NCBI GenBank assembly: GCA_963715415.1
Contig: CAVQSG010000041.1
Coordinates: 3,885-67,884, forward strand
DNA: 64,000 nucleotides
From: an uncultured Chloroflexia bacterium
GTDB taxonomy: Bacteria > Chloroflexota > Anaerolineae > Caldilineales > Caldilineaceae
Direction: 5' to 3'
Shown: piece by piece, positions 27,155-56,000 of the stretch
Numbering within the stretch: the first letter of the stretch is position 1
Layout of the letters: each line of letters begins with the position of its first letter
Program-made: the position numbers and the translations under genes
Notes under the pieces: model-generated
Told to the model about the DNA's origin: nothing
The model's database searches: none
What the model saw: only the letters and a program-made list of their open reading frames with translations

Positions 27155-27408
27155 GAGGTTTACGATAGAGTGGTGCTTTCGATTTCGTTAGGACCGTGAT
27201 TCCGGGCGTAACCTTCACCCCATTCGTGCGTCATGAAGCGCGACAAACCACGTAACCTGCCGACGATCTGCGAGCGGAATATTCCGGCGCGACGAGATCA
27301 CTTGATGCACTTGCAGCACCGAGATGTACGTGCATGCGGCCGGCAGCGGAACATATGGTTCCGACATCGAAAATACTCTACACGCAAAAAGAAGTACGGT
27401 CCAAACAG

Positions 27409-30400: not shown

Positions 30401-31065
30401 AGGAGAGCGGATCCGGTTCTCTGTCGAGCGCAGCCACCAACCGTGGGTCCGAAAGCGACACCATCGCCGTCTTGCCCACCGTCACGCCGCGAACCGAGCC
30501 TGCTGACACGCCTACCACAACGTCGACGCCTATGCCGCGTGCGACGCAGAGTGCGACCGCGGCGGTTTCACGTAAGGTGTCGGAGGCAAATACAACACAG
30601 CCGACGTTGGTGCCGTCCCGTCGGACGCGTGCTAGACGTGTCGCCCGTGCAACGCCACCGCCGGCGATGCAGCGCCCGTCGCGAACCCAGGTCGGTTCGG
30701 TCAAACTGATTAGCCCTGTAGACGAAACAGGCGGCAGTGGACGGATCGTCTTCACCTGGGAATCGAACTTTACCCCGCCGCCCGGCACTGCGTACGAGCT
30801 GATCTTCTGGCCACGCAACCGCGATCCGATGGTCGAAGGGTTCGGTCTTTCGGCTCCTACGCTTGCCACTGTCGAGTCGGTTGATCTAAATGCGCTGGAC
30901 CACACGCTGGGCAACCTACTTCAGCCGGGCGAGTATCGTTGGGGCGTGCTTTTGGTTGAAGTGTCTCCCTATCGCCGCATTGCCTTCTTGGGCGACGAAC
31001 ACGAATTTCGCTTTAATCGCACCTACGGCGATGGTGAACCGTATGTCGAGAATCCCGGTGAATAG
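27409..31065 (+). CDS. Membrane protein with a degenerate Ser/Thr kinase-like domain, one TM segment, a long Thr/Pro/Ala repeat linker and extracellular Ig-like or unknown domains
   Basis: Kinase-fold landmarks VAKVL, ITDFG, YLAPEQ and DVYALGAV are present, but the Gly-loop is absent and HRDLKPxN reads HLHLSPACI. The TM segment is WPLAALFLLFVFICSGVWFVY. I chose the start MNIPPSRIGDYEV at 27409. Confidence 0.75.
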   Translation: MNIPPSRIGDYEVVSEVARTSIYRAYVVKRLDDGGGTEFAVAKVLLPELYHDPAIRAQFINGAVAAEALSHPSIARVFSSADNGEFAYRLDEHLKAKPLDKILETRSSPISTENLISIVQQSSAAIDYAHFNGLRHLHLSPACIYITEHNRLLITDFGLPLLDRDHDAHDSTQPGDLVERHLEPVTPYLAPEQLKAGAVLFNQTDVYALGAVCYHLTTTHAPFRAASSEMLAAQILQEEPVLASELNPALPSALSYVLMGAMAKIPENRYTTARELAESLIEGSVIWHPGSSQSMRAIELESGGRSNSDNSRGWRRRWPLAALFLLFVFICSGVWFVYSNTAYTDTFVGPLLARFEGNADANTAAVADEVAEIAQPNEQANNGESARPTSTPTIQTSATTGAIDGSVELVLVPTSTGAPTESERSAGTLTATERSPNVVAVGAGQSAAATDAPTTTDSPTAAPTSTPVPTATSMATATATDVPTATPIATDSPTAAPTSTPVPTATSVATATATDVPTATPIATDSPTVAPTSTPVPTATSVATATATDVPTATPIATDSPTVAPTSTPVPTATSVATATSELKASATVAEETVVAGAAGATIEPTAAASVDTTVAAAVESTTENSDISTATETPAPTATSTATMTPAPTATATVTNTPTVTATDTPAPTATSTATMTPAPTATATVTNTPTVTATDTPAPTATSTSTRTSAPTATATVTNTPTVTATSTSTRTPAPTATATVTNTPTVTATSTSTRTPAPTATATVTNTPTVTATDTPAPTATSTSTRTSAPTATATVTNTPTVTATDTPAPTATSTSTRTSAPTATATVTNTPTATATNTPTPTATVTATPVPTAPPTSTSIPAPTPPNELAELAVELDAGNVVLSGRAPAGERIDILINGRVETGSVADADGNWTVVMPFTSPGSYAFAVQSVAANGLPGTQFGPAEITVAEDVAIMDIAAETEAVTVNTADLLDATAPATVVAETQSTHTERAQESGSGSLSSAATNRGSESDTIAVLPTVTPRTEPADTPTTTSTPMPRATQSATAAVSRKVSEANTTQPTLVPSRRTRARRVARATPPPAMQRPSRTQVGSVKLISPVDETGGSGRIVFTWESNFTPPPGTAYELIFWPRNRDPMVEGFGLSAPTLATVESVDLNALDHTLGNLLQPGEYRWGVLLVEVSPYRRIAFLGDEHEFRFNRTYGDGEPYVENPGE
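28774..29150 (+). repeat. Coding tandem repeat, 3.7 copies of 102 bp ([18 protein letters not shown](M/V)ATATATDVPTATPIA)
   Basis: Unit starts at 28774, 28876, 28978 and 29080 are spaced by exactly 102 bp. Confidence 0.9.
29305..29950 (+). repeat. Coding tandem repeats, about 8 units of 72-96 bp (TDTPAPTATSTxTxTxAPTATATVTNTPTVTA)
   Basis: Near-identical DNA units are visible directly. They also generate long antisense shadow ORFs. Confidence 0.85.
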
Positions 31066-41744: not shown

Positions 41745-42170
41745 GCTGTAAATCCTCGTTCGGACCCGTCAAATTCCAACGGGTCCGGACGGATCCCCCA
41801 TCTGTCGCATTTGAGAGACCGTGTGCAGGGTAGCCGTTTTCGGATGCCGGGGATTTGATTACCCTGAATTCGAACGAGGCCATCGCAACATTGGTCGTCA
41901 CACCATTTGGGGTACGACGCTAAGGCCGGTTGGTGGTACGACGGTTGCCGGTGCGTCCGCTCCAGAATCGCTCGCCGCCGTGACCGCTACTTGTCGGACC
42001 AAACCGGTTCTGAATTCGGGCGCAACTGGGCGATCATACAATACCGGCACGGAATCCCTCTGCCAATTGGCCGGCAATATCGACAGCGACTTTGTCCTTG
42101 CGCACGGTTCCTGGACACCGGTGTGGCTGGAGAGATTTACCATCAGCATGACACTTCAAAGGAGACGAAC

Positions 42171-43756
42171 ATGGCAATTTCACTACCCGACGGCGTGAAG
42201 ATAACCGGCCCCATTTCGGCAAATGTAGAGACAGTTCTGACCGGCGATGCACTGGCATTTATCGCCGAACTCCAACGCCGATTTAACGGCCGGCGAGAGG
42301 AACTGCTGGCCGCGCGTCGCGAGCGACAGGCAGCTATCGACGGCGGCATGACGCCCGGCTTTCTTCCCGACACTGCCCCTGTTCGTGCAGGAGATCGGAC
42401 TGTGGCACCGGCGCCGGCCGATCTCAATGACCGGCGGGTTGAGATCACCGGGCCTACCGAACGGAAGATGATGATCAACGCGCTCAACTCCGGGGCCAAG
42501 GTGTTTATGGCCGATTTTGAAGACGCCCTCTCGCCGACCTGGGAGAATGTAATCGACGGACAGATCAACTGTAGCGACGCCGTGCGCCGTACCATTGAGT
42601 TTGCCGAATCCGGATGGACGTCAGTACACACTGAACGAGACAGTCGCCACCCTGTTGATCCGGCCCCGCGGCTGGCATTTGACGGAGAAGCACGTGCACG
42701 GTCGACGGCGCGGCAGATCTCGGGCAGTCTCTTTGACTTCGGTCTCTATATGTATCCGCAATGCAGCGAATTGCTGGCCCGCGGCAGCGGTCCGTATTTC
42801 TATCTGCCCAAGCTGGAAAGCCATCTGGAGGCACGGCTCTGGAACGACGTGTTTGTCGATGCGCAGGAACAGTTGGGAATACCTCATGGCAGCATCCGGG
42901 CCACCGTGCTAATCGAGACAATTCTGGGGCGCTGGAGATGGAGGAGATTCTCTATGAAATCCGCGACCATGCCGCCGGGCTCAACGCTGGACGATGGGAC
43001 TACATCTTTAGCACAATCAAGAAGTTCGCCCGGCGTGAGAAGATGCTGCTGCCCGATCGTGGACAGGTCACCATGACTGTGCCCTTCATGCGCGCATACA
43101 CCGAACTCATGGTACGTACTTGTCACAAGCGGGGCGCACATGCAATCGGTGGTATGGCGGCCTTCATCCCCAACCGCCGCGATCCGGAGGTGACCGAGAA
43201 CGCACTCGCCAAAGTGCGGGAAGACAAGCTACGTGAGTTTGGCGACGGCTGTGACGGAACCTGGGTGGCGCATCCCGATCTGGTTCCGACCGTGCTCGAT
43301 GTGGCCAATGACTTCTTTGGCAATAAGCCGAATCAGAAGGAGATGTTGCGTGAGGATGTCAACGTGACCGCCGCCGAGATCACTTCTGTGGGCGTGCCCG
43401 GCGGCACGATCACAGAGGCAGGTCTGCGCATGAACGTAAGCGTCGCTTTGCAGTACGTCGACTCGTGGCTCAATGGCAACGGCGCTGCCGCCATCAACAA
43501 TTTGATGGAGGACGCCGCCACCGCGGAGATTTCCCGGTCACAGATCTGGCAGTGGATGCACCACGGTGCAAAGCTGGACGATGGCCGAGCAATCACGTCG
43601 GAACTGTACGTCCAGGTGCGGGCGGAAGAATTGGAGAAGCTGGGTGGCGCGGCAGTTTCACGCTATGGCGAATCGGCCGAATTGCTCGACAGACTCTGCC
43701 TTAACGACGAATTTATCGACTTCTTGACCGCGCCAGCCTACGAGTTGCTGGCCTAA
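42171..43756 (+). pseudogene. aceB: Malate synthase A; about 3 frame interruptions (near 42600, 42700 and 42920)
   Basis: The segments [14 protein letters not shown]...[14 protein letters not shown] (frame 0), [15 protein letters not shown] (frame 1), [15 protein letters not shown] (frame 0) and [27 protein letters not shown]...WVAHPDLV (frame 2) concatenate into a complete MSA. Confidence 0.85.
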
Positions 43757-44403: not shown

Positions 44404-45162
44404 CTAGCGAAAGGCGTCCATCTCCGCAATTCGCTGGATCGAAACGGCCGGCCGTGGCAATGCCTCCGGCATCTGATAGCCGCGGACCACGATTACAGGT
44501 CTTCCTTCGTCGCTCTGTCCCATCAGCAAGCTGGCTGCGCCCGATAATTCGTCGGCGATGCACTCTTCACTGCCGGCCAATTCGTAGCCGAATAGGTCGT
44601 GGAGTCCCCGTTGATCCCATACCGGCGGCAATCCGGCGCAGCCAATGCACGTGCCAACCGTGCCGACGCGCCATGGCCGGCCGTGGCTGTCGTTGATGAG
44701 CACTGCCGGTTCAACACCGGTGAGTTGTAGCAATCGCCCACGAATTCGTGCAGCGCTGGCATCTGAATCTTCCGGCAGCAGCGCAATCCGATCGCTGCCT
44801 TCGACGTTGCTGCGATCGACGCCAGCGTTGGCGCAGATCCAGCCGCTTGACTGTTCCACCACCAGCAGGCCGGGTTTGGCGCGGATGATGTCTCGGCTGT
44901 CGTCGAGCACTGCGGCGACCAATTGCGGATCTTTGTTGGTGATCGCTGCAACCTCCAGGTCCCGCGCGTCAGGCTGCAGGGAATCGAGCCGGATCAGACG
45001 GTCTTCGGCCTTGCTGACGATCTTCTGGGCAATCACGAGAATATCGCCGGCCAGTAGCGTTTCCTGCATGGCCTCAAGACCGGAGACAATCAGAGCCGCC
45101 AAATCGTCACCCGGATTGATCAGTGGAAGACTCTCGACTGCAAAAAGGGTCATTGATGTCAT
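44404..45162 (-). CDS. cofE: Coenzyme F420-0:L-glutamate ligase (CofE)
   Basis: LPLINPGDDLAALI...GDILVIAQKIVSKAEDR...ANAGVDRSN...INDSHGRPWR motifs are present. The start forms an ATGA overlap with the upstream gene. Confidence 0.85.
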   Translation of the reverse strand: MTSMTLFAVESLPLINPGDDLAALIVSGLEAMQETLLAGDILVIAQKIVSKAEDRLIRLDSLQPDARDLEVAAITNKDPQLVAAVLDDSRDIIRAKPGLLVVEQSSGWICANAGVDRSNVEGSDRIALLPEDSDASAARIRGRLLQLTGVEPAVLINDSHGRPWRVGTVGTCIGCAGLPPVWDQRGLHDLFGYELAGSEECIADELSGAASLLMGQSDEGRPVIVVRGYQMPEALPRPAVSIQRIAEMDAFR

Positions 45163-46004
45163 GAGATCGTTCTTTTCATGATTAGTAGTGCTTCCAGAAC
45201 GCCGCCGCCAACAGCGAACGACTTGTCGGACAGCGTAAAACAGTTTTCTGATTGGATCCGCGGATCCAGATCGCCAATCTTCATGCCGGTTAGAACCGGC
45301 ACTGCGGGATGCAGCATGCCGCGCAAAACCCCATCAAACGGCGCCGCCAACACATGTAGACAACCGTCTTCGCTGCGCACACGCGCAATCGTTTCATGCA
45401 TGCGCACGCGCGTGCCGATGGGTGTGTCGTCGACGATTCGGCCATCCACGGGCGATCGCAACACGCGACTGTCAACCGCATTGAGGCCCGGCAGCGCTCC
45501 CGGTCGTCCGGTATCGGGTTCCGGCCCGCCACGCCAAATGACGCGTCCAAGATTGTGGCCCCGATTGGTTTCTACAACCGCATGACAGTCCACCCCGGCT
45601 GTGAAACCCGGGCCCAATGCAATGACAATCGGCGCATCATCGATTGCCGTACCGAGATTCCGTTTGGCCATGATGCCGTCGATGACGGCCCGCGGGCGCA
45701 GGGTGCGCACCAGCTTCGCGTCAGGGTCAACGATTACGGGGATCTCTCGCCGTAGATAGGCACGATCATCGGCAAGGCGTATGGCCGCGTCTTCGGCGAC
45801 ACAACGCGCGGAGACACCTTCGACGACGACATCTGAACTATATACAGCTTCAGCAAATGCGACCGTGCGCCGCACGGCCAGCGGCGCTGCCAGCTCCGTC
45901 ATCATGAGGTCAAAGCCGGCTCGATGCAGACGTACAGCCACACCGGTCGCCAGATCGCCGGCGCCTTTGACGATCACCAGATCGTCCGACAGTCGTTGGT
46001 TCAT
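45159..46004 (-). CDS. YqeB-family selenium-dependent molybdenum hydroxylase system protein
   Basis: VIVKGAGDLATGVAVRLHRAGFDLMMTELAAPLAVRRTVAFAEAVY matches my recollection of the YqeB-family N-terminus. Confidence 0.6.
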   Translation of the reverse strand: MNQRLSDDLVIVKGAGDLATGVAVRLHRAGFDLMMTELAAPLAVRRTVAFAEAVYSSDVVVEGVSARCVAEDAAIRLADDRAYLRREIPVIVDPDAKLVRTLRPRAVIDGIMAKRNLGTAIDDAPIVIALGPGFTAGVDCHAVVETNRGHNLGRVIWRGGPEPDTGRPGALPGLNAVDSRVLRSPVDGRIVDDTPIGTRVRMHETIARVRSEDGCLHVLAAPFDGVLRGMLHPAVPVLTGMKIGDLDPRIQSENCFTLSDKSFAVGGGVLEALLIMKRTIS

Positions 46005-46043
46005 ACGCCGCCCTGGCTTTCAGTCGCACAGATGCAGCACATG

Positions 46044-47411
46044 TTAACCTGCAGCCGGGACAAAGCGGTAGCCGCGCCCACGCTCGTTTTCGATCGTGCC
46101 GACAGGAGGGGTTGCCGTGGCCAGCTGCAGACGCAAGCGGCGTATGGCTTCCTGCACACGCCGGGGCGAGGCATCGGGGCGTTTCCAGACGTCGGTCAAG
46201 AGTTGCTCGGGCGAAACGATGGCATTGCTGCGTACGCGCAGATATCGCAGCAGCGCTTCTTCCGTCTTGGTCAACTCCGCGTAGATCGGCAGCGATTCCA
46301 GGGGAACGCCGGACGGCGCCGCCGGAACCGCAACCTGCGCTACCGTCAGCCTCGATTCGATGAATTCTGCGAAGAGCGGCGAATAGAGCTTGTAGCCCCC
46401 CTCGCTGAAGATAACCACCGCCTGGTTGATCAGCCAGTTCATCAGCATCGTCTGTTGAGGAACGAGTTCGGAAGCCGGCAGCGGCGACTGTGCAAGCTGG
46501 GCCAACAGGGTTTCGATCATTTCGGGCGTGCCGCGCTGTGGTTTTTGCAGTTGACGCCACTGCGTTGCGAAAAGCAGACGTCCGTGCTCGGCAAGACGCA
46601 ATCGGATCAGATCGCCATGTTCAACACCGATGATCTGGCCGGGCGCAAGATATTGTTGCACTTCGGCAACGATGTCACCGATACGACGTAGGAGAAAGGG
46701 GTGTGTGCCTGTAAGTTCCAGCAATAGATCGCCCAATTCGTGGATCGCCGGAAACTGCTCGGCATATGATTCGATCCAGCTACGGGCCGCCGTCGCTTCG
46801 ATCAGGCCGATATAGAGCTGCGTCATCACATTGAAGAGTGGCGACGCCGCCAAATCCCGATCCAGATCGTGCAGAGGTTGTTGTGACGCCACCACCAACG
46901 CCAGTTCCAAGGTCAACGGTCGCAACTCGTCGGCACTCTCGCGGCTGATCAACTGGTCTTCGAAGACACGGTCAAAGTTGTCCATCATGATGACCAGTCG
47001 GTAGCCCATTTGGTTGAGCTGTCGACCGATGAGCCAGGCTTGACGCGCATCGCCCGATTGCTTCTCGATGGTAGACCAGTCCAATTCAATGCGTTCCTGT
47101 TCTTCGAGCTGTTGGCGTAAATGCTGCAGCAGGTACCCGAGCAGGTTTTCACGCACATCTTGCCAACTACAATCGACCATGCTGACGATGATGTTGACCC
47201 CATCGTCAAAAGCGGGCGGCCTCCAGGGTGCGTTTTCCTCGCTCAGCAGCGGTCCATCAGCGGACGCCAGGTGTTGAAGGAGGCTCGACTTGCCCGTGTA
47301 TTTTGTGCCGACCAATGTGAAACTTCCCGGTTGCGATCCAAGCACACCGGACGTGATCTCGCGTAACACACGCTGCCGTCCATAGAAGTGGTTTCTCGGT
47401 GCGTCCATCAT
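46044..47411 (-). CDS. P-loop ATPase (STAND/Arch_ATPase-like) with a C-terminal OmpR/PhoB-type winged-helix DNA-binding domain
   Basis: FYGRQRVLREI...LVGTKYTGKSSLLQHL is Walker A and LVIMMDNFD is Walker B. The C-terminal LTKTEEALLRYLRVRSNAIVSPEQLLTDVW...RRLRLQL...ENERGRGYRF is trans_reg_C-like. The start ATG at 47409-47411 overlaps the upstream TGA (ATGA). Confidence 0.8.
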   Translation of the reverse strand: MMDAPRNHFYGRQRVLREITSGVLGSQPGSFTLVGTKYTGKSSLLQHLASADGPLLSEENAPWRPPAFDDGVNIIVSMVDCSWQDVRENLLGYLLQHLRQQLEEQERIELDWSTIEKQSGDARQAWLIGRQLNQMGYRLVIMMDNFDRVFEDQLISRESADELRPLTLELALVVASQQPLHDLDRDLAASPLFNVMTQLYIGLIEATAARSWIESYAEQFPAIHELGDLLLELTGTHPFLLRRIGDIVAEVQQYLAPGQIIGVEHGDLIRLRLAEHGRLLFATQWRQLQKPQRGTPEMIETLLAQLAQSPLPASELVPQQTMLMNWLINQAVVIFSEGGYKLYSPLFAEFIESRLTVAQVAVPAAPSGVPLESLPIYAELTKTEEALLRYLRVRSNAIVSPEQLLTDVWKRPDASPRRVQEAIRRLRLQLATATPPVGTIENERGRGYRFVPAAG

Positions 47412-50400
47412 GAATCCCCCAACCGATCGCTGTTTTGTTGCACAAGCGCATTTGTCGCCAACCATTGCTGGAAGAGCAAGTTGGCAAATTGCCAGCCCTG
47501 TTCCGCCCCTGACTCTGTATACACGACGATGTCCTGTGAAGACAGCTTGTACAACGTGCTCTCCACCAGATCGCGGTCGATGTCGGGCATGGCTGCGGCC
47601 AGCTGATCGATAGTGACTATGCTGTCCAGATTGTCACCCGAGATCAATGCGAGGACTTGAACGACAGTATGTCCAATGCCGTGGACGAGATCGAGCAGGT
47701 GTGAAAAGAGGCTCTCGTTGGGCTCCATAAATTCGCCGAGCACAGTTTCCACATCCTCCCACATGACTTGCCGTCGATCCAGGCGCGTCATGTGGCTGAC
47801 AAGTTTGAAGCAGAATGCCTGAATGAAAAAGGGGCTACCCCCGGTCAGACGGGCCACAACGTCGACCGTCTCCGGCGTATACTCCAGGAAGTTGCGGATT
47901 GGCCATTCAATGAGCCGGCGCACATCATCCTGGTTGAGTTGACGCAATGCCAACTGTTCGCCCAGTTCCAACAACTCCCAGATAGGGTCGATGTCGGTCT
48001 GGGCACGCTGTACAGTCAACATGTCGTAGCTCTTCTGTTGCACAACCGTCACATAGCTGATCATCGGCATCGTCGCCAGCATGACGCCGCGCCATTGGTG
48101 AAAGAAGCTGTCGTCAAGCCGTTTTTGGTGGAATGCGTCGATCGTCCGGCTGAATTCGTCCAGCAGCAGAACCAGACGACGCGCACCCAGTTTTCGTTGG
48201 ATGCTGCGCAAATAGGCGATGAATTGGCCACGTGGGTCGTGATCAAAGCGCTCGCGCAGAGGCGGTCCCCATTCGACCAACCGCGCTTCCCCCCGGCCAC
48301 CGTCGAGCAGCAGTTCATTGTAAACCGCGCCGGCCACGTCAAAGAAGATGCTGTGACCGTCCATATTGCTCAAAAGCTGAAAATCCACGAAGACCGGCAC
48401 GCAGCCGTGGTCTTCCAGATGGAAACGTTTGAGGTGGAGCAGTAGAGACGTCTTTCCGACGCGTTTCTGCCCGCGTAGCCAGACGCTGCCCGCGCCGCTC
48501 TGCAGCCAGTCGACAATCCGCGAAAGATCGCGGGCGCGACCAAAGAACATCTGCCGCTCGTGGACCGGCAGCCGGCTGTAGGGGTTGACCGCACCGACAG
48601 CCTGTCGGCTCAGGATCTCCTCCTGCTCAGAAGGTGGCAGGCTCATGGCCTGGACATTGTCGATGCTTCGATCGGGGAGCGTACGTAGTGCGGTGGCGAT
48701 GGCGTCGACCACGTCGATACTTTCGGCTTCCACCGTGAAGCGTAGGCTGGCAATGCCGCGACGGGCAACAGCCTCGACTCTGTGGAGTTGTACCCGGGGC
48801 AACCGTGCATAGATCTGCGCAATTGCATCGCCGAGCAGGCCATCGTCGTTGAGCGCAGTCATTTCGATTCGGGCCAGCGCGTTGTGCTGGGGCTGCAAAC
48901 GCCATTTTAAGGGAATCCATTCGACCGGATTGTCTCTCTGGCCGACCATTTTGACACAGTCGCTGCGATGGACCTTGAGCCCGGTGAGCACACCGCGACG
49001 GCGCAACGGGCGTCCCACAATGTCCTCACCCGGTCGCGGCAGACAGCATTGGGCCAGTTGCAGTTGATGAGGACGCAGCCTGAGCTCGCGAGGTAGACGA
49101 ATTTGGCGCCGGACCTGGTCGGCGAAGTAGGCATGCAACATCCGGTCGGCCGCCCAATGACCGCCGCGATCTCGGCGAAGAGCTCTTCCACCCGGGTCAG
49201 CTGCAGCCTATGCATCGATTGTTCGATGGCCCGGTTGACTTGGTGATCCGGCATATTAAAGCCGAAGTGGTCTTCGAGCGCCTTCCGTCGTTGGTCCACG
49301 ACCCGCTGGCCCTGGTAAGCGCCTTGTCCCATCCGCTTGAGATGTTTCTCGATATTGCTTCGGGCTCGATTCGTCTGCGCCGCGTCGAGCCATGCCTGTG
49401 TCGGCCCCGGAGAAAGCGGGTCGTGTTCAAGTTCGATCAGGTCCAGATGGTGTAAGAGCGTACCCGGTTGGGCTGGTTGTCCATTAACATAGAATCTTGA
49501 GCAGCGATCCGCCAACTCGGAATGGACATTGTAGGCGTAGTCAATGACCGTGCTCCCACGCTGAAACTTGAAAAGCTGACCGTGGGGGCTAAATACATAG
49601 AGCGTATCCGGCAGTGAACCGAGGGCAGCGGAGATGATTCCTGCATAACCCTCCTCGGCATTTTGCCACCAGCCGGCGGGTAGTGGGCCTGCCGTCCGGC
49701 CACGAATGGTAAAGGCGGCCAAGCCCCAGTGGTTCACTTCGTTCATGGCATAGGTGGCAATGCGCAGGTTGATGCGCACCCGGCGCGCGTCGAGCTTTGA
49801 TGCCTCTTTGATTTCATCGATGGCCATGTCCGCAGGCGTAAAGGTCAACGCGGCCGGGACCATGACACCGGTGGAAATGCCGCGATATCCGTTGAGGCGT
49901 CCGGCGCCGATATTGTCGGCCAGTCCGTTTTCGACGGGCATAAAAAGCCGATGTACCAAGTAGAGTGCATGATAGCAAGCAGCTTCATCACCGACCAGGA
50001 TCCCGATGGTCGGTACTTTTGCATTGCGTTGTGTGACGTAGGCAGTATTCGACGCGTCAAAGTTGTGCGTTTGTGTGTTTTGTGTATTAAATTCTGCCTG
50101 TGGCAGCAGAATCGCAAGGTGTTCGACCACGGCGCCGAGCAGTTTCTGGATCTCGCGCTCCGTTTCGCTCTGGTCGGACAATCGTCCGACCATCCATTCA
50201 GCCAGTTGCCCACGCAGCCGGCGCATGCCCAACATTTCCAAGTAAGGCCCGAGCAATTGTGTGGCCTCATCATGAAAGGGTAGGAGCTTGCGGTCAGCCG
50301 TCGCGTGCACGTTCGAAGCGACGCCACAGTACAGCAGCCTGCAGCAAAGCCAGGTCTGTGTCCCGATAGGCCGCGCAATAGGCACGGATGCGCTGATAGG

Positions 50401-50806
50401 TGAGTCGACTGCCCTGCCAGTGCGCCGGCATTGCCAGTAATTCTGCAGGATCCGCTGGGAAATCAGTCGTCTGCGGTTGTGCCGGGATGGAAGCAAGTCG
50501 TGCGCCCGACAGGTTGTATTCACTGACCGGCGCAGCCAGGCACACAAAATCCCGGCATAATTGAGCAACTTGTGGATGACAGACCTCGGCGATCTGCACG
50601 GAGGTCACGGCGCCGAGACAGACGGCTTTGTGCAGCAAGGCCGCGGATTGCAACAATTCATCCGCCCCCCAACATTCCAAAACGCCGGCGACGGCTTGCC
50701 CCTCCCGGCAGGCGTCTACGACCGTTGGGAGCGCACCACGGCTCTCGAGTGACGCACAGAGTTCGCGCGCATCCGATAAAATTGTTTCCTCTGGCTTCAT
50801 GTACAT
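47408..50806 (-). pseudogene. RelA/SpoT-homologue scaffold (HD-like, synthetase-like, TGS, Cys-rich ZFD, ACT) fused to a C-terminal P-loop ATPase; frame interruptions near 50298 and 49155
   Basis: The HD-like region reads AVAGVLECWGADELLQSAALLHKAV. The synthetase-like region reads CYHALYLVHRLFMPV..NGYRGISTGV..RINLRIATYAMNEVNHWGLAAF. The TGS region is YVFSPHGQLFKFQRGSTVIDYAYNVHSELADRCSRFYVNGQP and the ZFD region is LAQCCLPRPGEDIVGR..LKVHRSDC. The ACT region is ARIEMTALNDDGLLGDAIAQI. The ATPase has FFGRARDLSRIVDWL..LRGQKRVGKTSLLLHL and LVLLLDEF. Confidence 0.75.
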
Positions 50807-50864
50807 ATATCACGACATCTATACTCGAAACACAATTCTCGGTGAGTAATGTGTATTTTGGGGG

Positions 50865-50893
50865 TTGACATTGTGTGTTACGTGTGTTACTAT
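50865..50893 (+). promoter_or_regulatory. Near-consensus sigma70-type promoter (TTGACA, 17 nt spacer, TACTAT)
   Basis: TTGACA is at 50865-50870 and TACTAT at 50888-50893 in an AT-rich divergent intergenic region. It lies about 180 nt upstream of the first small ORF. Confidence 0.5.
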
Positions 50894-51071
50894 TCGGTCG
50901 CATGTGGGACACAGCGCATCCACAATATACATGATGGATACAGGTTCTGCAAGCATCAACCACACATTTTGCTCTCGGCTTGCCTGTGGATTGTCGCCCG
51001 TAAAAGGCCGGCAACCGCCGAATCACCCAGGCAACGGACGGCAGGGAGCGAAGCGGGAAAGGAGGTGTGCC

Positions 51072-51287
51072 ATGTTCGTCAGCATGAAAGACTATGAGGT
51101 AGCCCGTGAGCGAGGCCGGGAGTTTGCTCGGCAGGCACGGGAGGAGAATCGGGCTCGTACTCTTACAGGCGGGTTTCGATTCGGTCGGCAGGTTGACCGC
51201 GTGGGGCGAATGGTCGGCGCCGGGGTGCGAAGTTTCTTTGAACGCCTTGCACCGGTAGAAAGGGGCGGGAATCGCCGTTACGCCTGA
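51072..51287 (+). CDS. Small Arg-rich hypothetical protein (71 aa)
   Basis: An AAGGAGG SD lies 7 nt upstream of the ATG. The protein is MFVSMKDYEVARERGREFARQAREENRAR... Confidence 0.5.
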   Translation: MFVSMKDYEVARERGREFARQAREENRARTLTGGFRFGRQVDRVGRMVGAGVRSFFERLAPVERGGNRRYA

Positions 51288-51377
51288 GGTGCGCGTCCGA
51301 GTCAGCGACCGGAACGCACGCGGCAAGTACCTATCACTGCAGCAGGCAACAGTGCGAATCGGTCCTAGGAGGACGTC

Positions 51378-51575
51378 ATGTATCACTGGAACGCATATCT
51401 TGAACTTGATCTCCATCGTCTTCGCGAAGAAGAATTGGCACGAAAGTGGGCCAGGCGCAGCCGGTATCGGCAAACCCAGCGGTCCCGCTGGAAGGGCATG
51501 CAACTGATCGAAGCGATGCGGAAGCAACGACAACATGGCCGGCGTAAGCTCAATCTTGGCCGCTCGGCTGTATAG
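51378..51575 (+). CDS. Small basic hypothetical protein (65 aa)
   Basis: An AGGAGG SD lies 5 nt upstream of the ATG. The protein is MYHWNAYLELDLHRLREEELARKWARRSRYR... Confidence 0.5.
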   Translation: MYHWNAYLELDLHRLREEELARKWARRSRYRQTQRSRWKGMQLIEAMRKQRQHGRRKLNLGRSAV

Positions 51576-51630
51576 ACCACCCGATTGCGTTGCGACGTAA
51601 ATCAATGTGAATCGACGTGGAGGGGACACC

Positions 51631-51837
51631 ATGAACCAGATGTACAACCAGTTGCCCTTGGCGCAAGCAATGATGCCCGGGCTCTTCAACAGCGCACAGA
51701 AGGCCTCCCAGGAGTCTTCGGGGCTCGGGCGTCGGCTTGCCGCCCACGTCGGAAACGTACTCGTCGCTATCGGCAAGCGCCTACAGGTGACTGAGCCAAC
51801 TCCGGCGCTCAATACCTCTCACCGGCAGGCGGTATAG
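51631..51837 (+). CDS. Small hypothetical protein (68 aa)
   Basis: A GGAGGGG SD lies 5 nt upstream of the ATG at 51631. The protein is MNQMYNQLPLAQAMMPGLFNSAQK... Confidence 0.45.
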   Translation: MNQMYNQLPLAQAMMPGLFNSAQKASQESSGLGRRLAAHVGNVLVAIGKRLQVTEPTPALNTSHRQAV

Positions 51838-51915
51838 GAAGCCGGTACAAGCACGTTGGCGACCGGCATCAATGACGATGAGCGGTTCAAAAATATAGAA
51901 TACTCCTTTCGATGG

Positions 51916-51957
51916 AACGACTCGGCTATCTCTCCCGGTAGCCGAGTCGTTTTGTTT
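51916..51957 (+). terminator. Rho-independent terminator after the small-ORF cassette
   Basis: The perfect 13-bp stem AACGACTCGGCTA/TAGCCGAGTCGTT has a 10-nt loop and is followed by TTGTTT. Confidence 0.7.
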
Positions 51958-52069
51958 CTGAGACGCGACGCCGGAGAATCTCGCATAGATCGCCTGTTGT
52001 CGCCATGTCCTATGAATCCCGGGACATCTGTCACATGTAGTCACGCACGATGCACAGTATGCTTGAAAC

Positions 52070-52103
52070 GCAACCAAATGCATCAAATGCAACCGAATGC
52101 ATC
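52070..52103 (+). promoter_or_regulatory. Direct repeat GCAACC(A/G)AATGCATC x2 (19-bp period), a candidate operator upstream of the HTH-PocR gene
   Basis: The copies are at 52070-52084 and 52089-52103. Each contains the palindrome ATGCAT. They lie 20-60 nt upstream of the start codon. Confidence 0.3.
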
Positions 52104-52122
52104 TAGAGCCTACAGGTGAAAT

Positions 52123-52903
52123 GTGCTGACCATGTCCAACTTCTATACGACTCGACAGTTGCAGGAACTGCTTCAGGTTGACCGTACGACGATCTATCGT
52201 ATGGCTGATGCCGGCCGCGTGCCGGCGGTCAAAGTCGGCAACCAGTGGCGATTTCCCGCGCCACGACGTGGAGTCTTGGCTGAAGACACGGAATGGTGTC
52301 GCACCGTCAAGTGCGGCCGGCGCAACGGGGGAGACGACCCAGGCCGTGGAGGGGTTGCGCAAGCTATTGCCGCTTGAGTGTGTGCAGCTCATTCAAAACA
52401 CCTTTGCGGACGTTCTGGGGGTCATGGTTCTCATCACCGATCTGGACGGCGAACCGGTGACCGAACCGAGCAATCCCTGTGGCTTGTTCACGGCAGCCGA
52501 ATCCTCGCCGGAAGCGCGGAAGCGATGTATGCAGTTGTGGGCGGAGTTGGCGCGCGATCCTGCAATGCAGCCCCAATTTATCCAAAGTCATGTTGGGCTG
52601 CTATGCGCCCGGGGACTGATACGGGTGGGCAGCGAACTGAAAGCCATGCTGGTCGTAGGTGGAATCGCGCCCGAACAATGGCCGCCCAGTGACCAGCAAC
52701 TGGCCCGCATTGCGGCCGATCTACAGTTGCCGGAGGAGTTGTTGCGCCGGCACATCGATGATGTCTTCGTGATCGCACGTGATGAACAGAAGCGGCTGCT
52801 GGCTTTTGTGCAGCGCATCGCCGACATCGTTTCGCACATCATTCAGGAGCGAAATCAGTTCTATTCGACGCTCCATCACATAGCGGCCTTAACCAAAATC
52901 TAG
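52123..52903 (+). pseudogene. Excisionase/MerR-type HTH fused to a PocR sensory domain; 1-nt frame interruption near 52258 in a TTTCCC run
   Basis: YTTRQLQELLQVDRTTIYRMADAGRVPAVKVGNQWRFP continues in the next frame as RHDVESWL. It is followed by LIQNTFADVLGVMVLITDLDGEPVTEPSNPCGLF (PocR-like). The start is either 52123 (GTG) or 52132 (ATG). Confidence 0.7.
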
Positions 52904-52975
52904 TCGATCACGTATCCAAGTGCTATCAGGCGCCCCTTTTTTGAGCGCCATTTGTGAATAAAGGAGCAAACCGCG

Positions 52976-54211
52976 ATGAAGAAGTTGTTGATCCTCGGCG
53001 CCGGGACGGCCGGCACCATGGTCGCCAATCGACTCTCCCACGAGCTGGATCCATCTGAGTGGCAGATCACGATCGTGGACCAGGATGAAGTTCACTATTA
53101 CCAGCCGGGTTTCTTGTTCATTCCCTTTGGTACCTACGCCAAGGCAGATGTGGTCAAACCCAAGCGGGATTATCTTCCGATGGGCATCGAGATCATTATC
53201 TCCGAGATCGAGGCCATCGAAAGCGGACCACAATCGGGTTCGCATCAAGAAGGACAATCGTTACCTCAATTACGACTATCTCATCATTGCCACCGGATCG
53301 CGCACGGTTCCCGAAGAGACGCCGGGACTGGAAGAGCATGAATGGCGCAAGAGCATCTTCGATTTCTACACGGTTGACGGCGCCGTTGCTCTTCACCGCT
53401 TTCTGCGCACATGGGAGGGTGGGCGTCTGGTCCTCAACGTGGCCGAAATGCCCATCAAGTGCCCGGTCGCGCCGCTGGAATTCCTCTTCCTGGCCGACTA
53501 CTACTTCCACCAGCAGGGCATGCGGGACCGCGTCGAACTGACACTGGCGACACCGTTGCCCGCTGCGTTTCACCAAGCCCATAGCGGCCGGTCTGCTAGG
53601 CGACATTCTGGAACAGAAGGGCATCAACGTCGTGACCGAGTTCAATATCGAGCGCGTGGAACCTGACGAGAAAGCCATCTATTCCTACGACGAACGGAAA
53701 ATCGACTATGACCTTCTGGTGAGTGTGCCGGTCAACATGGGGTCAGAGGTCATTGAACGCTCAGGGCATGGGGGACGATTTGATGTTCGTGCCGACGGAG
53801 AAGCACACGCTGAAGGCGCAAGAACACGACAACATCTTTGTGCTCGGGGATGCAACAGATCTGCCCAGCTCCAAAGCCGGGTCCGTGGCCCACTTCCAGG
53901 TGGATGTCTTCATCGACAACTTCCTGCGCTATCTCGATGGGCTGGATCTGCGCCCGACTTTTGACGGCCATGCCAATTGTTACATCGAATCCGGTTTCGG
54001 CAAGGGCTTCCTGATCGATTTCAACTACGACGTCGAACCACTGCCGGGCAAGTTCCCGTTGCCTGGCGTCGGACCCTTTTCACTGCTTCAAGAATCGAAG
54101 GTCAACCACTGGGGCAAGATGATGTTTCGCTGGGTCTACTGGAACATTCTACTCAAGGGCAAGGAATTGCCGATTCCGGCTCAGATGAGCATGGCCGGGA
54201 AATGGCAGTAA
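52976..54211 (+). pseudogene. Sulfide:quinone oxidoreductase-like NAD(P)/FAD-dependent oxidoreductase; about 3 frame interruptions (near 53225, 53572 and 53765)
   Basis: MKKLLILGAGTAGTMVANRL is the FAD Rossmann motif. LIIATGS, CPVAPLEFLFLADYY, IFVLGDATDLPSSKAGSVAHFQ and HANCYIESGFGKG are spread over four successive frames. Confidence 0.75.
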
Positions 54212-54224
54212 GGGAGAAAAGATC

Positions 54225-54959
54225 ATGACAAGTGCAGTCATGGGGTATGCCGAGCCCCGGGAATCCGAACGACTCGCCGACATCGCGCGCAAGCTCGATG
54301 TTCTTAGTCAAAACGTGGCGGCGCTGGGCGAACAGGTGAATTTCCTGACTGAGCAAGCCTATGACGAGCGCAGACGACGGCGTGAGTGGGATGAGTTTCG
54401 AACGGACGTCACTCCGGTCGTCAACGACATGTATGCCTTGACAGTCGAGCAGTTGGAAGAGATACAGGCCTACGTCCAGTTGGAAGATGTGATGGCGCTG
54501 GTGAAGCGATTGGCACGCAACACCCGTACCTTCAACGGCATGCTGGACCAGGTCGAAAGTATGTACGATCTCTGGAAAGACGTTTCACCGTTGACGAAAG
54601 AAATGGTCGACGAAGCCGTTTTTCAGCTCAATGTCTTGGAACAGAAAGGCTATTTCGGCTTTGCCAGAGAGGGTGCCTACGTGGTCGATCAGATCGTCAC
54701 CTCTTTTGGTCAGGACGATGTACGCCAGCTCGGCGACAACGTGGTGACGATCCTCAATACCGTCAAGGCGTTGACCCAACCGCAAATGATGAGCCTGATC
54801 GACAACTTGACCCAGGGCTTCCAGGAAGTCGAAGAACACGCCGACGAACTGCCCACTTCTATGTTTGGCCTGCTGCGCGAGATGCGCGATCCCGAAGTTC
54901 GCCGGGGCCTGGCGATCACATTGGCCATGCTTAAGAAGGTATCGCATCAACACAGTTAA
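54225..54959 (+). CDS. DUF1641 domain protein
   Basis: The 244-aa helical protein lies directly downstream of the SQR-like gene, which is the usual DUF1641 context. The C-terminal region resembles the DUF1641 domain. Confidence 0.6.
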   Translation: MTSAVMGYAEPRESERLADIARKLDVLSQNVAALGEQVNFLTEQAYDERRRRREWDEFRTDVTPVVNDMYALTVEQLEEIQAYVQLEDVMALVKRLARNTRTFNGMLDQVESMYDLWKDVSPLTKEMVDEAVFQLNVLEQKGYFGFAREGAYVVDQIVTSFGQDDVRQLGDNVVTILNTVKALTQPQMMSLIDNLTQGFQEVEEHADELPTSMFGLLREMRDPEVRRGLAITLAMLKKVSHQHS

Positions 54960-55013
54960 CACGAACACCAACACCAACAGATCATTTTAAGTGTGAGAAA
55001 GGAACGACCAACC

Positions 55014-55325
55014 ATGACCGCTGTTGCAGATTTGACCGTCAAGTTCGATGCCGAAGGCTTCATGACTGATCCGACGGAATGGACGCCGGAGATCGCCGCC
55101 GTTTTGGCTCAGGAAGAGGGCATCGACGCTCTAACCGAAGAACACTGGACTGTGATCAACTTTGTGCGAGACGAATACGACAAGACCGGACAATCACCGA
55201 CACTACGCGCCATTAGCAAGCGATCCGGCGTTGGGACCAAGGAACTCTATGCGCTCTTCCCCAAAGGCCCGGCCAAGAAGGTGGCGCGAGTTGCCGGATT
55301 GGGCAAACCCAAGGGCTGCATCTAG
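55014..55325 (+). CDS. TusE/DsrC-family sulfur relay protein
   Basis: FDAEGFMTDPTEWTPEIA...WTVINFVRDEYDKTGQSPTLR...GKPKGCI has the conserved penultimate Cys. I chose the ATG at 55014 behind a GAAAGGAA SD. Confidence 0.8.
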   Translation: MTAVADLTVKFDAEGFMTDPTEWTPEIAAVLAQEEGIDALTEEHWTVINFVRDEYDKTGQSPTLRAISKRSGVGTKELYALFPKGPAKKVARVAGLGKPKGCI

Positions 55326-55529
55326 GTCCCATTGACATTTGGTCGTAAACGTCCCCGGCACACCAGTAGCACTTGGATTACCAGAGAGACGCCGGGTCCG
55401 TGCCGGGGACGTGCGACAGCCACCTCCTGAGTCGAGTCCGAAATGTCAACAAGACCTAGCGAATCCCGGCGGAGTTGGCAACTCGGATAAGATACCTGAA
55501 TAGCGACGAACGATAAACGGAGAATCGAA

Positions 55530-56000
55530 ATGAGCGAGGAACGAACACGCAAACTGGCGATCATCTGCTCCAAAGGTAGTCTGGACATGGCCTATCCCGG
55601 TCTTGTCCTGGCCAATGCCGGGCGCATGATGGGCATTGAGGTTGACCTCTTCTTCACCTTCTGGGGCATGGACATCATTAGCAAGAAGAAGGTCAAGAGC
55701 TTGAAGGTCGTGCCTGTGGGCAATCCGGCCATGCACATGCCGCAGATGATTGGCGGCTTCCCTGGGATGACCGACTTGGCCACGAACATGATGAAGAAGG
55801 AGATCGAGAAGCTGGACATGCCGCCGGTCGATGAATTCCTGGAGATGATTCATGACGCCGGCGCCGGCATCTACGCCTGTCGCATGGCCTCTGACATGAT
55901 GCATCTGGACGAAGACGACCTGATTGATGAGGTCGACGGCATCCTCGGCGCCATGGAGTTTCTGGAAATGGCCGAGGACGCACAGCTCCTTTTCATCTGA
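55530..56000 (+). CDS. DsrE/DsrF-like family protein
   Basis: KLAIICSKGSLDMAYPGLVLANA...FFTFWGMD...IYACRMASDMM is typical of the DsrE2-like family. Confidence 0.75.
   Translation: MSEERTRKLAIICSKGSLDMAYPGLVLANAGRMMGIEVDLFFTFWGMDIISKKKVKSLKVVPVGNPAMHMPQMIGGFPGMTDLATNMMKKEIEKLDMPPVDEFLEMIHDAGAGIYACRMASDMMHLDEDDLIDEVDGILGAMEFLEMAEDAQLLFI

Follow-up and report, generated by a model that had tools for sequence, protein, structure and literature searches.

A two-gene cassette beside an array of short repeats

We describe a two-gene cassette on the minus strand of a 64,000-nt stretch of DNA (the window; coordinates are positions in it) from an uncultured Chloroflexia bacterium of the Caldilineaceae (assembly GCA_963715415.1, contig CAVQSG010000041.1, positions 3,885 to 67,884). 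Gene 1 encodes a protein laid out like a long RelA/SpoT homologue (RSH) and fused at its C terminus to an ATPase module; gene 2, the partner gene, encodes a second ATPase joined to a winged helix-turn-helix (wHTH). A reading made earlier from the letters of the window, here called the sequence-only reading, had proposed that both catalytic centres of the RSH part are destroyed, that the two ATPases are paralogous, and that the two proteins might form a sensor/output pair. The features of the cassette and of its upstream flank are collected in Table 1.

In an all-frame translation gene 1 appeared as three overlapping minus-strand open reading frames (ORFs) in differing frames, 50806-50294, 50568-48907 and 49141-47408, and these were joined across two single-base indels into a protein of 1131 aa. 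The partner ORF is open from an upstream in-frame ATG at 47465 (47465-46044, 473 aa); its homologues back a start at 47411, and from that start the partner is as long as they are.

Table 1. The cassette, its domains and the features of its upstream flank, in window coordinates.
Feature	Coordinates	Strand	Remarks
Gene 1, RSH-like pseudoenzyme fused to AAA+/STAND-like ATPase	47408..50806	-	1131 aa when repaired; 36 full-length relatives, 40-64% identity
Pseudo-HD (hydrolase-like) domain	50278..50806	-	Least conserved; 0 invariant columns
Pseudo-synthetase domain	49618..50277	-	GRPKxxYSIYxK motif replaced by disordered TQxTQTH loop; G-loop D298/R304/N306/Y308 kept
TGS domain	49408..49617	-	Most conserved; 31% invariant columns; invariant His427 at 49524-49522
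Helical, zinc-finger/RIS and RRM/ACT domains	48659..49407	-	Invariant C586, C587, H612, C616
Fused C-terminal ATPase	47411..48568	-	FFGR; Walker A GQKRVGKTS (K784); Walker B LLLDEF (D882, E883); helical lid; winged-helix-like end
Frame change 1 in gene 1	50294..50298	-	Extra T (~50296) makes the TGA that closes the first ORF
Frame change 2 in gene 1	49159..49163	-	One G missing from a GGG run (~49161)
Gene 2, partner	46044..47411	-	455 aa; ATPase, lid/winged helix, OmpR/PhoB-type wHTH
Repeat array, divergent intergenic region	50826..50933		GTATATTGTGG ... TAACACACG-TAACACACAA-TGTCAA ... TACACAT ... TTGTGTT; candidate operator
Intragenic repeat copy	50029..50092	-	ACACAA three times on the sense strand, in the pseudo-synthetase loop
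sigma70-like promoter for the divergent small ORF	50865..50893	+	TTGACA-17-TACTAT, TG-extended
Divergent small ORF	51072..51287	+	71 aa, basic
Second small ORF	51378..51575	+	65 aa, basic; homologue of the second small ORF at locus L001

Gene 1 has the layout of a long RSH and lacks its catalytic residues

The domain order of gene 1 is HD-synthetase-TGS-helical-zinc-finger (ZFD/RIS)-RRM/ACT, followed by an Orc1/Cdc6/Arch_ATPase-like AAA+ module. When the pieces of gene 1 were compared with Pfam, matches to HD_4 (E=0.002) and RelA_SpoT (E=0.018) were found, both under the curated cut-offs, along with matches to TGS (1e-9) and ACT_4 (1e-3); in NCBIfam the pieces matched TIGR00691 spoT_relA at 1.5e-26 and 1.6e-9. 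A profile of the gene 1 family aligned from HD through RRM with the solved long RSHs 6yxa (B. subtilis Rel, E=3e-62), 8fr8 (2e-60, over profile positions 16-658) and 5iqr (E. coli RelA, 2e-56). The AlphaFold2 model of the whole protein had a mean predicted local distance difference test score (pLDDT) of 84.6, with low confidence in three loops only, and Foldseek matched this model to ribosome-bound RelA, full-length SpoT and Rel, with E values down to 6e-23 (5iqr; also 7qpr and 6yxa). The complete long-RSH order had been read from the letters alone, and it is borne out by the domain matches, the profile alignments and the fold; the N-terminal region does score as RSH.

The catalytic columns were read in B. 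subtilis Rel numbering, which was checked against the B. subtilis Rel sequence, with B. subtilis Rel and four canonical Rel proteins added to the alignment. At the HD site of the window protein H53-P54 reads E-G, H77-D78 reads H-K, E81-D82 reads C-L, D144 reads V and N148 reads R. At the synthetase site R241, K243 and K251 are absent, D264 is K and R269 is G, and E324, Q326 and R328 are N, R and A, respectively. The window protein thus has neither the hydrolase active site (H53, H77-D78, E81-D82, D144, N148) nor the synthetase active site (R241, K243, K251, D264, R269, E324-x-Q-x-R), and the substituted motifs that had been spelled out by eye agree with the alignment columns. All 36 close relatives likewise lack D78 and R241, K243, K251, D264 and R269, and with three exceptions their E324 is N, H, T or Q. 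In the same alignments the five canonical Rel controls keep 23/23 key residues.

The loss extends to the wider family. Among 131 fused proteins none has R241, K243, D264 and E324 together (K243 is left in two and D264 in nine). In the most divergent branches the MAFFT columns around D264 and R269 may be off by some residues, and the claim for these is that no site is complete. Inspection of the raw alignment showed that some distant branches retain E324 and a SIYRRM-like stretch. Nor does any of the 131 combine the HD metal ligands with E81/D82; the four ligands (H53/H77/D78/D144) are all kept in eight members of one sister branch, and E81-D82 in none of these. The proposed destruction of both centres therefore stands family-wide in the sense that no complete site was found, but not in the sense that every trace is gone, the HD metal site having survived in some sister branches. 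In the eight proteins (P0271, P0273, P0275, P0276, P0280, P0282, P0287 and P0301) the stretch HP..LLHDV..ADRLHN is near-canonical, and E81-D82 and the synthetase site are missing. Proteins of this branch may bind (p)ppGpp or have residual hydrolytic activity.

The most conservative alternative is that gene 1 is an ordinary bifunctional Rel with an accessory ATPase and that the catalytic loss is an error of alignment by eye. It has in its favour the intact RSH fold and the names given to relatives, '(p)ppGpp synthetase/hydrolase' or 'GTP pyrophosphokinase'. Yet the controls keep every key residue and not one of the fused proteins is complete for either activity, the same substitutions appear when the family is aligned by HMMER profile with 6yxa, 8fr8 and 5iqr, and the HD_4 and RelA_SpoT matches fall short of their cut-offs. 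An ordinary Rel is thus scarcely credible, and we regard it as ruled out by the catalytic columns with their internal controls. In sum, by alignment and predicted fold gene 1 is an RSH in descent and structure that is without the residues for making or hydrolysing (p)ppGpp. The source annotations of P0002, P0008, P0025, P0180, P0311 and others read 'bifunctional (p)ppGpp synthetase/hydrolase', 'GTP pyrophosphokinase' or 'HD domain-containing protein'; as applied to these fused proteins the enzyme labels are very probably wrong.

Conservation is highest in the regulatory half

In the Caldilineales clade the mean conservation of the gene 1 domains, taken as the fraction of the majority residue per column, was 0.36 for the pseudo-HD, 0.48 for the pseudo-synthetase and 0.82 for the TGS domain, with the helical, zinc-finger, RRM and ATPase parts at 0.62-0.68. 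The corresponding share of invariant columns was 0 in the pseudo-HD, 7% in the pseudo-synthetase and 31% in the TGS. This pattern is the reverse of an enzyme's and suggests that the functional core of gene 1 is its regulatory half. The zinc-finger C-C-H-C is invariant in the family alignment. His427 of the TGS, which is invariant in the clade, corresponds in the alignment to H420 of B. subtilis Rel and H432 of E. coli RelA, and a His at this position is retained in 129/131 fused proteins. In the canonical proteins this His forms a stack with the 3'-CCA of the uncharged tRNA in the A site, and mutating it abolishes tRNA-dependent recruitment to the ribosome.

As the main alternative to a tRNA or ribosome signal, the possibility was weighed that the N-terminal half is the receptor, binding a guanine nucleotide (the alarmone or GTP/GDP) through the G-loop or, in the sister branch, through the HD metal site, and relaying this to the ATPase switch. 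The C-terminal domains would then be autoinhibitory or oligomerising, as in off-ribosome Rel. The G-loop residues D298, N306 and Y308 are kept in 129, 122 and 126 of the 131 fused proteins despite the catalytic loss around them, and pppGpp-bound Rel N-terminal domains (7oiw, 24io) are among the structural matches. The eight sister-branch members, with their metal ligands and without E81/D82, show the pattern expected for binding without hydrolysis. However, the pseudo-HD and the pseudo-synthetase are the least conserved domains in the Caldilineales clade, R241, K243 and K251, which hold the phosphates, are gone, and a nucleotide receptor would leave the constraint on the TGS and its CCA-reading His unexplained. 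We consider such a receptor unlikely.

The two proteins carry homologous ATPase modules

In Pfam the C-terminal 390 aa of gene 1 matched AAA_16 (5e-6) and nSTAND1 (5e-4), and also ATPase_2. The AAA_16 scores of the window proteins, 27.5 and 26.4 bits, are below the cut-off of 32.6, and the ATPase_2 score of 17.2 bits is below the cut-off of 33.2; relatives carry precomputed AAA_16, ATPase_2 and nSTAND1 matches. Foldseek showed the fused module to resemble Orc1/Cdc6 and RuvB-type AAA+ proteins, and the assignment of this NTPase to the Arch_ATPase/STAND type was supported. The fused ATPase is likely active, because the Walker A sequence GQKRVGKTS and the Walker B DEF are invariant or near-invariant in the family.

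The partner matched AAA_16 (1e-5) and, over residues 397-468 of the 473-aa ORF, Trans_reg_C (1e-13, 51.5 bits against a cut-off of 26.2). This C-terminal OmpR/PhoB-type wHTH, predicted as such in the sequence-only reading, lies at 46062-46277 and is nearly invariant. The model of the partner (pLDDT 90.6) has an AAA+ core, a helical lid and a winged helix; its best matches were the Arch_ATPases PAB2304 (2qen, E=2e-8, template-modelling scores 0.48/0.60) and SSO1545 (2fna), and Orc1/Cdc6 (2v1u, 2qby), MalT (8bob) and NLRC4 were matched as well. Walker A is intact (GTKYTGKS), and Walker B reads MMDNFD, with D-N rather than D-E. No receiver (REC) domain was found in the partner as a Response_reg match, and the NCBIfam response-regulator models that it matched cover only their C-terminal ~75 residues. 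A SARP/AfsR-type layout was not found either: there was no BTAD, NB-ARC or TPR match, and the wHTH of the partner is C-terminal.

BLASTP between the two ATPase modules aligned the P-loop head only (E=1e-5). Profile-profile comparison, by which the two modules are homologous, covered 327 columns made up of the core, the lid and the winged-helix-like end (96% probability, E=2e-9), so that the paralogy first suspected from the P-loop heads has been extended to the modules.

The fusion is widespread and the partner is always adjacent

A search with the repaired gene 1 returned 36 full-length relatives of 1040-1168 aa, 40-64% identical to it and with the same domain order; canonical Rel proteins matched only at 1e-26 or weaker. 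In a scan of one genome per species, gene 1 was present in about 50 species-level genomes, all of them Caldilineales (Caldilineaceae, Caldilinea, Litorilinea and Ca. Fredericiella), and the same scan gave one distant copy, in an Acidobacteriota chromosome. A profile search of 1.84 billion cluster representatives went further. Nearly all of the best 150 matches were proteins of 1050-1200 aa matched end to end, with scores running from ~1600 down to ~300 bits, and fusions persisted to the last of them. The fusion architecture is shared by at least 130 protein clusters, one of them from Acidobacteriota and the others assigned to Chloroflexota, and the named members of the branches outside the Caldilineales are Chloroflexota (Herpetosiphonaceae, 'Chloroflexi bacterium'). 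A word-indexed search with a profile of the distant members gave about 24 fused proteins and then canonical Rel; it is the exhaustive profile search of the cluster representatives that shows how broad the superfamily is. The idea of a system confined to this genome has thus given way to a large superfamily. An assembly chimera was ruled out, the same fusion being found in assemblies that are independent of one another and number in the dozens, contigs of several Mb among them (for example CAVVOJ010000001.1, 2.7 Mb, and OY970193.1, 7.5 Mb). No canonical rel gene lies in the 64-kb window.

The partner gene lay directly downstream of gene 1 in 51/51 Caldilineales loci with at least 1.5 kb of downstream DNA, and in 6/6 cassettes from outside that order, namely L059 (Acidobacteriota), L084 to L087, and L088, which belongs to the branch with the HD metal site. 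The flanking neighbours vary by lineage. Because the outer neighbours differ while the two genes stay together, gene 1 and the partner form a conserved unit, and the co-conservation on which a paired function would depend is present. The ATGA overlap noticed between the two genes is real in the window (ATG 47411-47409, TGA 47410-47408), but it is not a conserved trait: the intergenic gap has a median of ~63 nt and ranges from -8 to 279, with 4-nt overlaps at some loci.

The frame changes in the window copy

At junction 1 a surplus T (~50296) shifts the frame, and the repaired reading, aligned with intact orthologues, joins ..RFERARDG to DRKLLPFHDEA... At junction 2 a GGG run (~49161) is short by one G, which is a homopolymer-length change; repair gives ..EIAAG[H]WAADRMLH.., and the family consensus at this place is EIAAGRWAADRMLH. 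Unrelated genes nearby are split too. Malate synthase (41907-43756) is broken between positions 91 and 94 of the TIM-barrel profile, one regulator (52123-52903) has its HTH_17 half and its PocR half in different frames, and an SQR-like Pyr_redox_2 oxidoreductase (52976-54211) is in several pieces. The indels are concentrated at ~41.9-54.2 kb, and several ORFs of 3-4 kb elsewhere in the window are unbroken. This clustering suggests a local sequence-quality problem, such as low coverage in a long-read assembly.

Because the neighbouring genes are broken as well, the indels in gene 1 are very probably sequencing errors. The alternative, that the frameshifts are real and that gene 1 is a recent pseudogene in this genome, of a family functional elsewhere, draws on the two frame changes within 3.4 kb and on the protein collection, in which the partner was found at 100% identity (P0042) but no intact gene 1 protein from this genome. 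Against it stand the split neighbours and the homopolymer at junction 2. Further, every family-invariant residue is intact in all three frame segments of the window copy, which has no in-frame stops, and the matches at two other long-read metagenome-assembled loci, L057 and L058, are fragmented in the same way. Recent decay seems to us a poor explanation, with little likelihood of being right.

TACACAA repeats upstream of and within gene 1

At 36/42 non-redundant loci two or more copies of ACACAA/TTGTGT occurred within 250 nt upstream of gene 1; for the same upstream count, the mean over mononucleotide shuffles was 0.3 and the highest value 3. When ACACAA was mapped from -600 to +5200 over 37 loci, it clustered in two places only, at -300 to 0 in both orientations (134 occurrences) and at +600 to +800 in the sense orientation only (44 occurrences). 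The 64-kb window has only two ACACAA clusters, both within the cassette. At the promoter the array recurs in a set order: GTGTATATTGTGTG; a spacing of ~35-45 nt; CACACAA-aa-TACACA(A/T)-TGTCAATA; and TTGTGTA. The conserved TGTCAA, as it stands in the window, forms the -35 box (TTGACA) of the strong sigma70-like promoter on the opposite strand, and the CACACAA pair occupies the spacer of that promoter. TACACA arrays were also found upstream of the distant cassettes L085 and L086.

The intragenic copy lies at about +650, in a disordered loop (residues 243-260, pLDDT<50) that replaces the ATP-binding motif of the synthetase. In orthologues it is the tandem ATACACAA-ATACACAA, read in two frames (..Y-T-Q-I-H-N..), and Thr-Gln is encoded as ACACAA in 24/38 cases at the tandem as against 12/101 elsewhere in the same genes. 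From the reading in two frames and the codon bias it follows that the constraint is on nucleic acid, not on protein. An explanation of the array at the level of RNA was not favoured. Rfam, T-box included, gave no family over 45500-52500, the window has no tRNA genes, and shuffled sequences fold just as well as the RNA upstream of gene 1 (z=0.09). The intragenic copies, being on the sense strand, may still act in the RNA. The array is probably the operator of the partner's wHTH.

The divergent small ORF in Table 1 belongs to a family of proteins of 56-86 aa with the motif M..KD[VY]xVAxERYxDxRRxA, found beside the cassette in about 29/37 Caldilineales loci. The second small ORF is present in a subset of loci, and at four loci a Band_7/SPFH protein takes the place of the small protein. 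No Pfam or PADLOC family was found for the small divergent ORFs.

Genes around the cassette

The setting of the cassette is chromosomal, in synteny with PBP1, sulfur-metabolism genes, a PocR regulator and F420 ligase, with malate synthase also near. Because of this chromosomal and syntenic setting, inheritance looks vertical. The window cassette is flanked at 52123-56000 by a divergent set consisting of the PocR/HTH_17 regulator, Pyr_redox_2, HMP, DsrC and DsrE. The same set is present at L001 (2911-6691) and L004 (3200-7090), which are the closest relatives of the window locus, and not at L002 or L003; it seems to reflect synteny within the lineage, not an obligatory functional link. Between the F420-0:gamma-glutamyl ligase gene (44404-45162) and the partner is a 281-aa ORF (45159-46004, minus strand), whose overlap with the ligase gene is 4 nt. 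It had no Pfam or PADLOC match, and at L001 the 1-kb stretch that corresponds to it has no called gene. The flanks of L088 (P0280) are tRNA-related, with a YbaK-like tRNA_edit protein, a tRNA U5-methyltransferase and a class-I tRNA synthetase. Three divergent genes lie just upstream of the cassettes at L085 (2219-5794) and L086 (2184-5752), the first for a MoxR-like AAA_5 ATPase, the second for an unknown protein and the third for a DUF2201_N/VWA protein; L085 has a TIR_2 gene nearby, and the triad is reminiscent of MoxR-vWA conflict systems. Farther away in the window, positions 28001-30000 have an AT skew of +0.26 and a GC skew of -0.14 within a 1243-aa Ser/Thr-kinase ORF (27334-31065), and positions 2001-8000, which contain a 1272-aa WD40-repeat protein (3497-7315), have a G+C content of 65-69% against ~57-59% elsewhere.

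STAND-type ATPases are common in defence systems, and the cassette might be an anti-phage or conflict system of the STAND/Avs kind, in which the ATPase pair would be an immune switch and the RSH part a decoy that senses a phage factor aimed at the stringent machinery, or else an effector directed at the ribosome. A weak match to NF053861 DS8_antiphage (E=0.011, over the P-loop only) would fit with this, as would the MoxR(AAA_5)-x-VWA triads adjoining L085 and L086 and the TIR_2 gene of L085, which recall the ternary systems of Kaur et al. 2020. Against such a role, gene 1, gene 2, the 281-aa neighbour and the small ORFs had no PADLOC-DB v2 match at E<=0.01; the neighbourhood is a housekeeping one, with the same synteny across an order instead of patchy islands; and the cassette is without a nuclease, TIR or pore effector, its sole recognisable output domain being a transcription-factor wHTH with an apparent autoregulatory operator. 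A defence role is very doubtful.

A proposed sensor/transcription-factor pair derived from an RSH

We read the cassette as an autoregulated pair of sensor and transcription factor derived from an RSH pseudoenzyme, and would give this reading an even chance. The RSH-derived part would be the sensor, and its signal would be deacylated tRNA and/or the state of the ribosome; this signal is favoured because the TGS and its CCA-reading His are the most conserved. Binding of the signal would alter the nucleotide state or the oligomerisation of the fused ATPase, and this ATPase and its homologue in the partner would pair like two Orc1/Cdc6 paralogues on DNA. The pairing would in turn control the binding of the partner's wHTH to the TACACAA repeats. 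Targets would be the cassette itself, the divergent small protein or proteins, and possibly genes elsewhere in the genome, and the output would be transcription, not alarmone chemistry. The sensor/output pair was put forward as a hypothesis in the sequence-only reading, and as a hypothesis it is strengthened by the conservation of the TGS and by the operator-like repeat array at the cassette's own promoter.

Several points weigh against this interpretation. We infer the signal that is sensed, the hetero-oligomerisation and also the target on DNA. An N-terminal domain in a STAND protein is more often the effector than the sensor, and the RSH part is N-terminal to the ATPase. Tandem sites of OmpR/PhoB proteins usually have a period of 10-11 bp, and the TACACAA repeats have one of 8-9 bp; moreover, the conserved block is in part just the -35 box of the divergent promoter. 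The partner may bind ATP without hydrolysing it, because its Walker B has D-N rather than D-E. The synthetase-dead D264G mutant of B. subtilis Rel loses ribosome binding, and because of this a dead N-terminal half might be unfit for canonical docking on the ribosome. The retention of the G-loop residues described above counts on the same side, as do the two indels borne by the window copy of gene 1.

A more specific form of the sensor/transcription-factor reading would make the cassette a branch of the stringent response that does without the alarmone, and in which the scaffold would dock on stalled ribosomes or bind uncharged tRNA through its TGS, ZFD and RRM domains and drive a hetero-oligomeric AAA+ factor onto TACACAA. 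We offer this only tentatively.

Comparison with known systems

The likeness of gene 1 to the long RSHs, namely Rel, RelA and SpoT, lies in the six-domain order, the fold, the TGS His and the zinc-finger Cys/His residues. The loss of one centre has precedents in RelA[hS], with its pseudo-hydrolase, and in the Acinetobacter-type SpoT[Hs], with its degenerate synthetase. Gene 1 differs in that both centres are degenerate, in its AAA+ fusion of ~390 aa and in its obligate pairing with a DNA-binding paralogue. Atkinson et al. 2011 distinguished 11 subgroups of long RSHs, RelA[hS] and SpoT[Hs] with one degenerate centre each among them, and Jimmy et al. 2020 distinguished 13 subfamilies; neither paper mentions an [hs] form or an ATPase fusion. 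In Kaur et al. 2020 the domains RelA nucleotidyltransferase and TGS are mentioned solely in the role of effector modules in MoxR-vWA systems. In the literature searched, the coverage of which was incomplete, no published description of a system joining an RSH-ATPase to an ATPase-wHTH was found.

With MalT/LAL proteins and SARP-type AfsR the cassette shares a switch ATPase of the FxGR-Walker A kind joined to a DNA-binding domain. The SARPs have the same Trans_reg_C type of wHTH as the partner, and MalT is among the partner's structural matches. Here, in contrast, one of two paralogous ATPase proteins has the sensor and the other the DNA-binding function, BTAD, TPR and LuxR HTH are absent, and the presumed sensor is an RSH scaffold instead of repeat domains. 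The wHTH of SARPs is N-terminal, that of the partner C-terminal. The Arch_ATPases (PF01637; PAB2304, SSO1545) and Orc1/Cdc6 share the AAA+ core, lid and winged helix with the modules of the cassette, and the Orc1/Cdc6 heterodimer on origin DNA (2qby) is a precedent for two paralogues side by side on DNA; identity to these proteins is only 10-16%, however, the RSH scaffold and the OmpR wHTH are additions, and there is no link to replication. OmpR/PhoB response regulators resemble the partner in their C-terminal Trans_reg_C winged helix and in having short direct repeats as the (here candidate) target, whereas the partner has an ATPase module in place of the receiver domain and a repeat period of 8-9 bp rather than ~11 bp. 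Judged by these analogies, the cassette is most like the STAND/AAA+ transcription regulators and paired Orc1/Cdc6, and differs from them in domain order, in the split over two proteins and in the sensor.

Significance

The chance that the cassette stands for a new signalling logic is substantial. So far the long RSH proteins have been known solely as enzymes controlling the level of (p)ppGpp, and a family such as this one would alter that picture. Intact orthologues, a diagnostic His, a candidate TACACAA operator and a conserved small protein as a candidate target provide handles for experiments. If our reading is correct, the regulatory scaffold of an RSH can act as a stand-alone sensor, and across the Chloroflexota, reaching into the Acidobacteriota, there would be a direct protein relay from the charging status of tRNA to promoter DNA. 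The sensing of starvation would then be wired to transcription without a second messenger, in a form that is directly testable.

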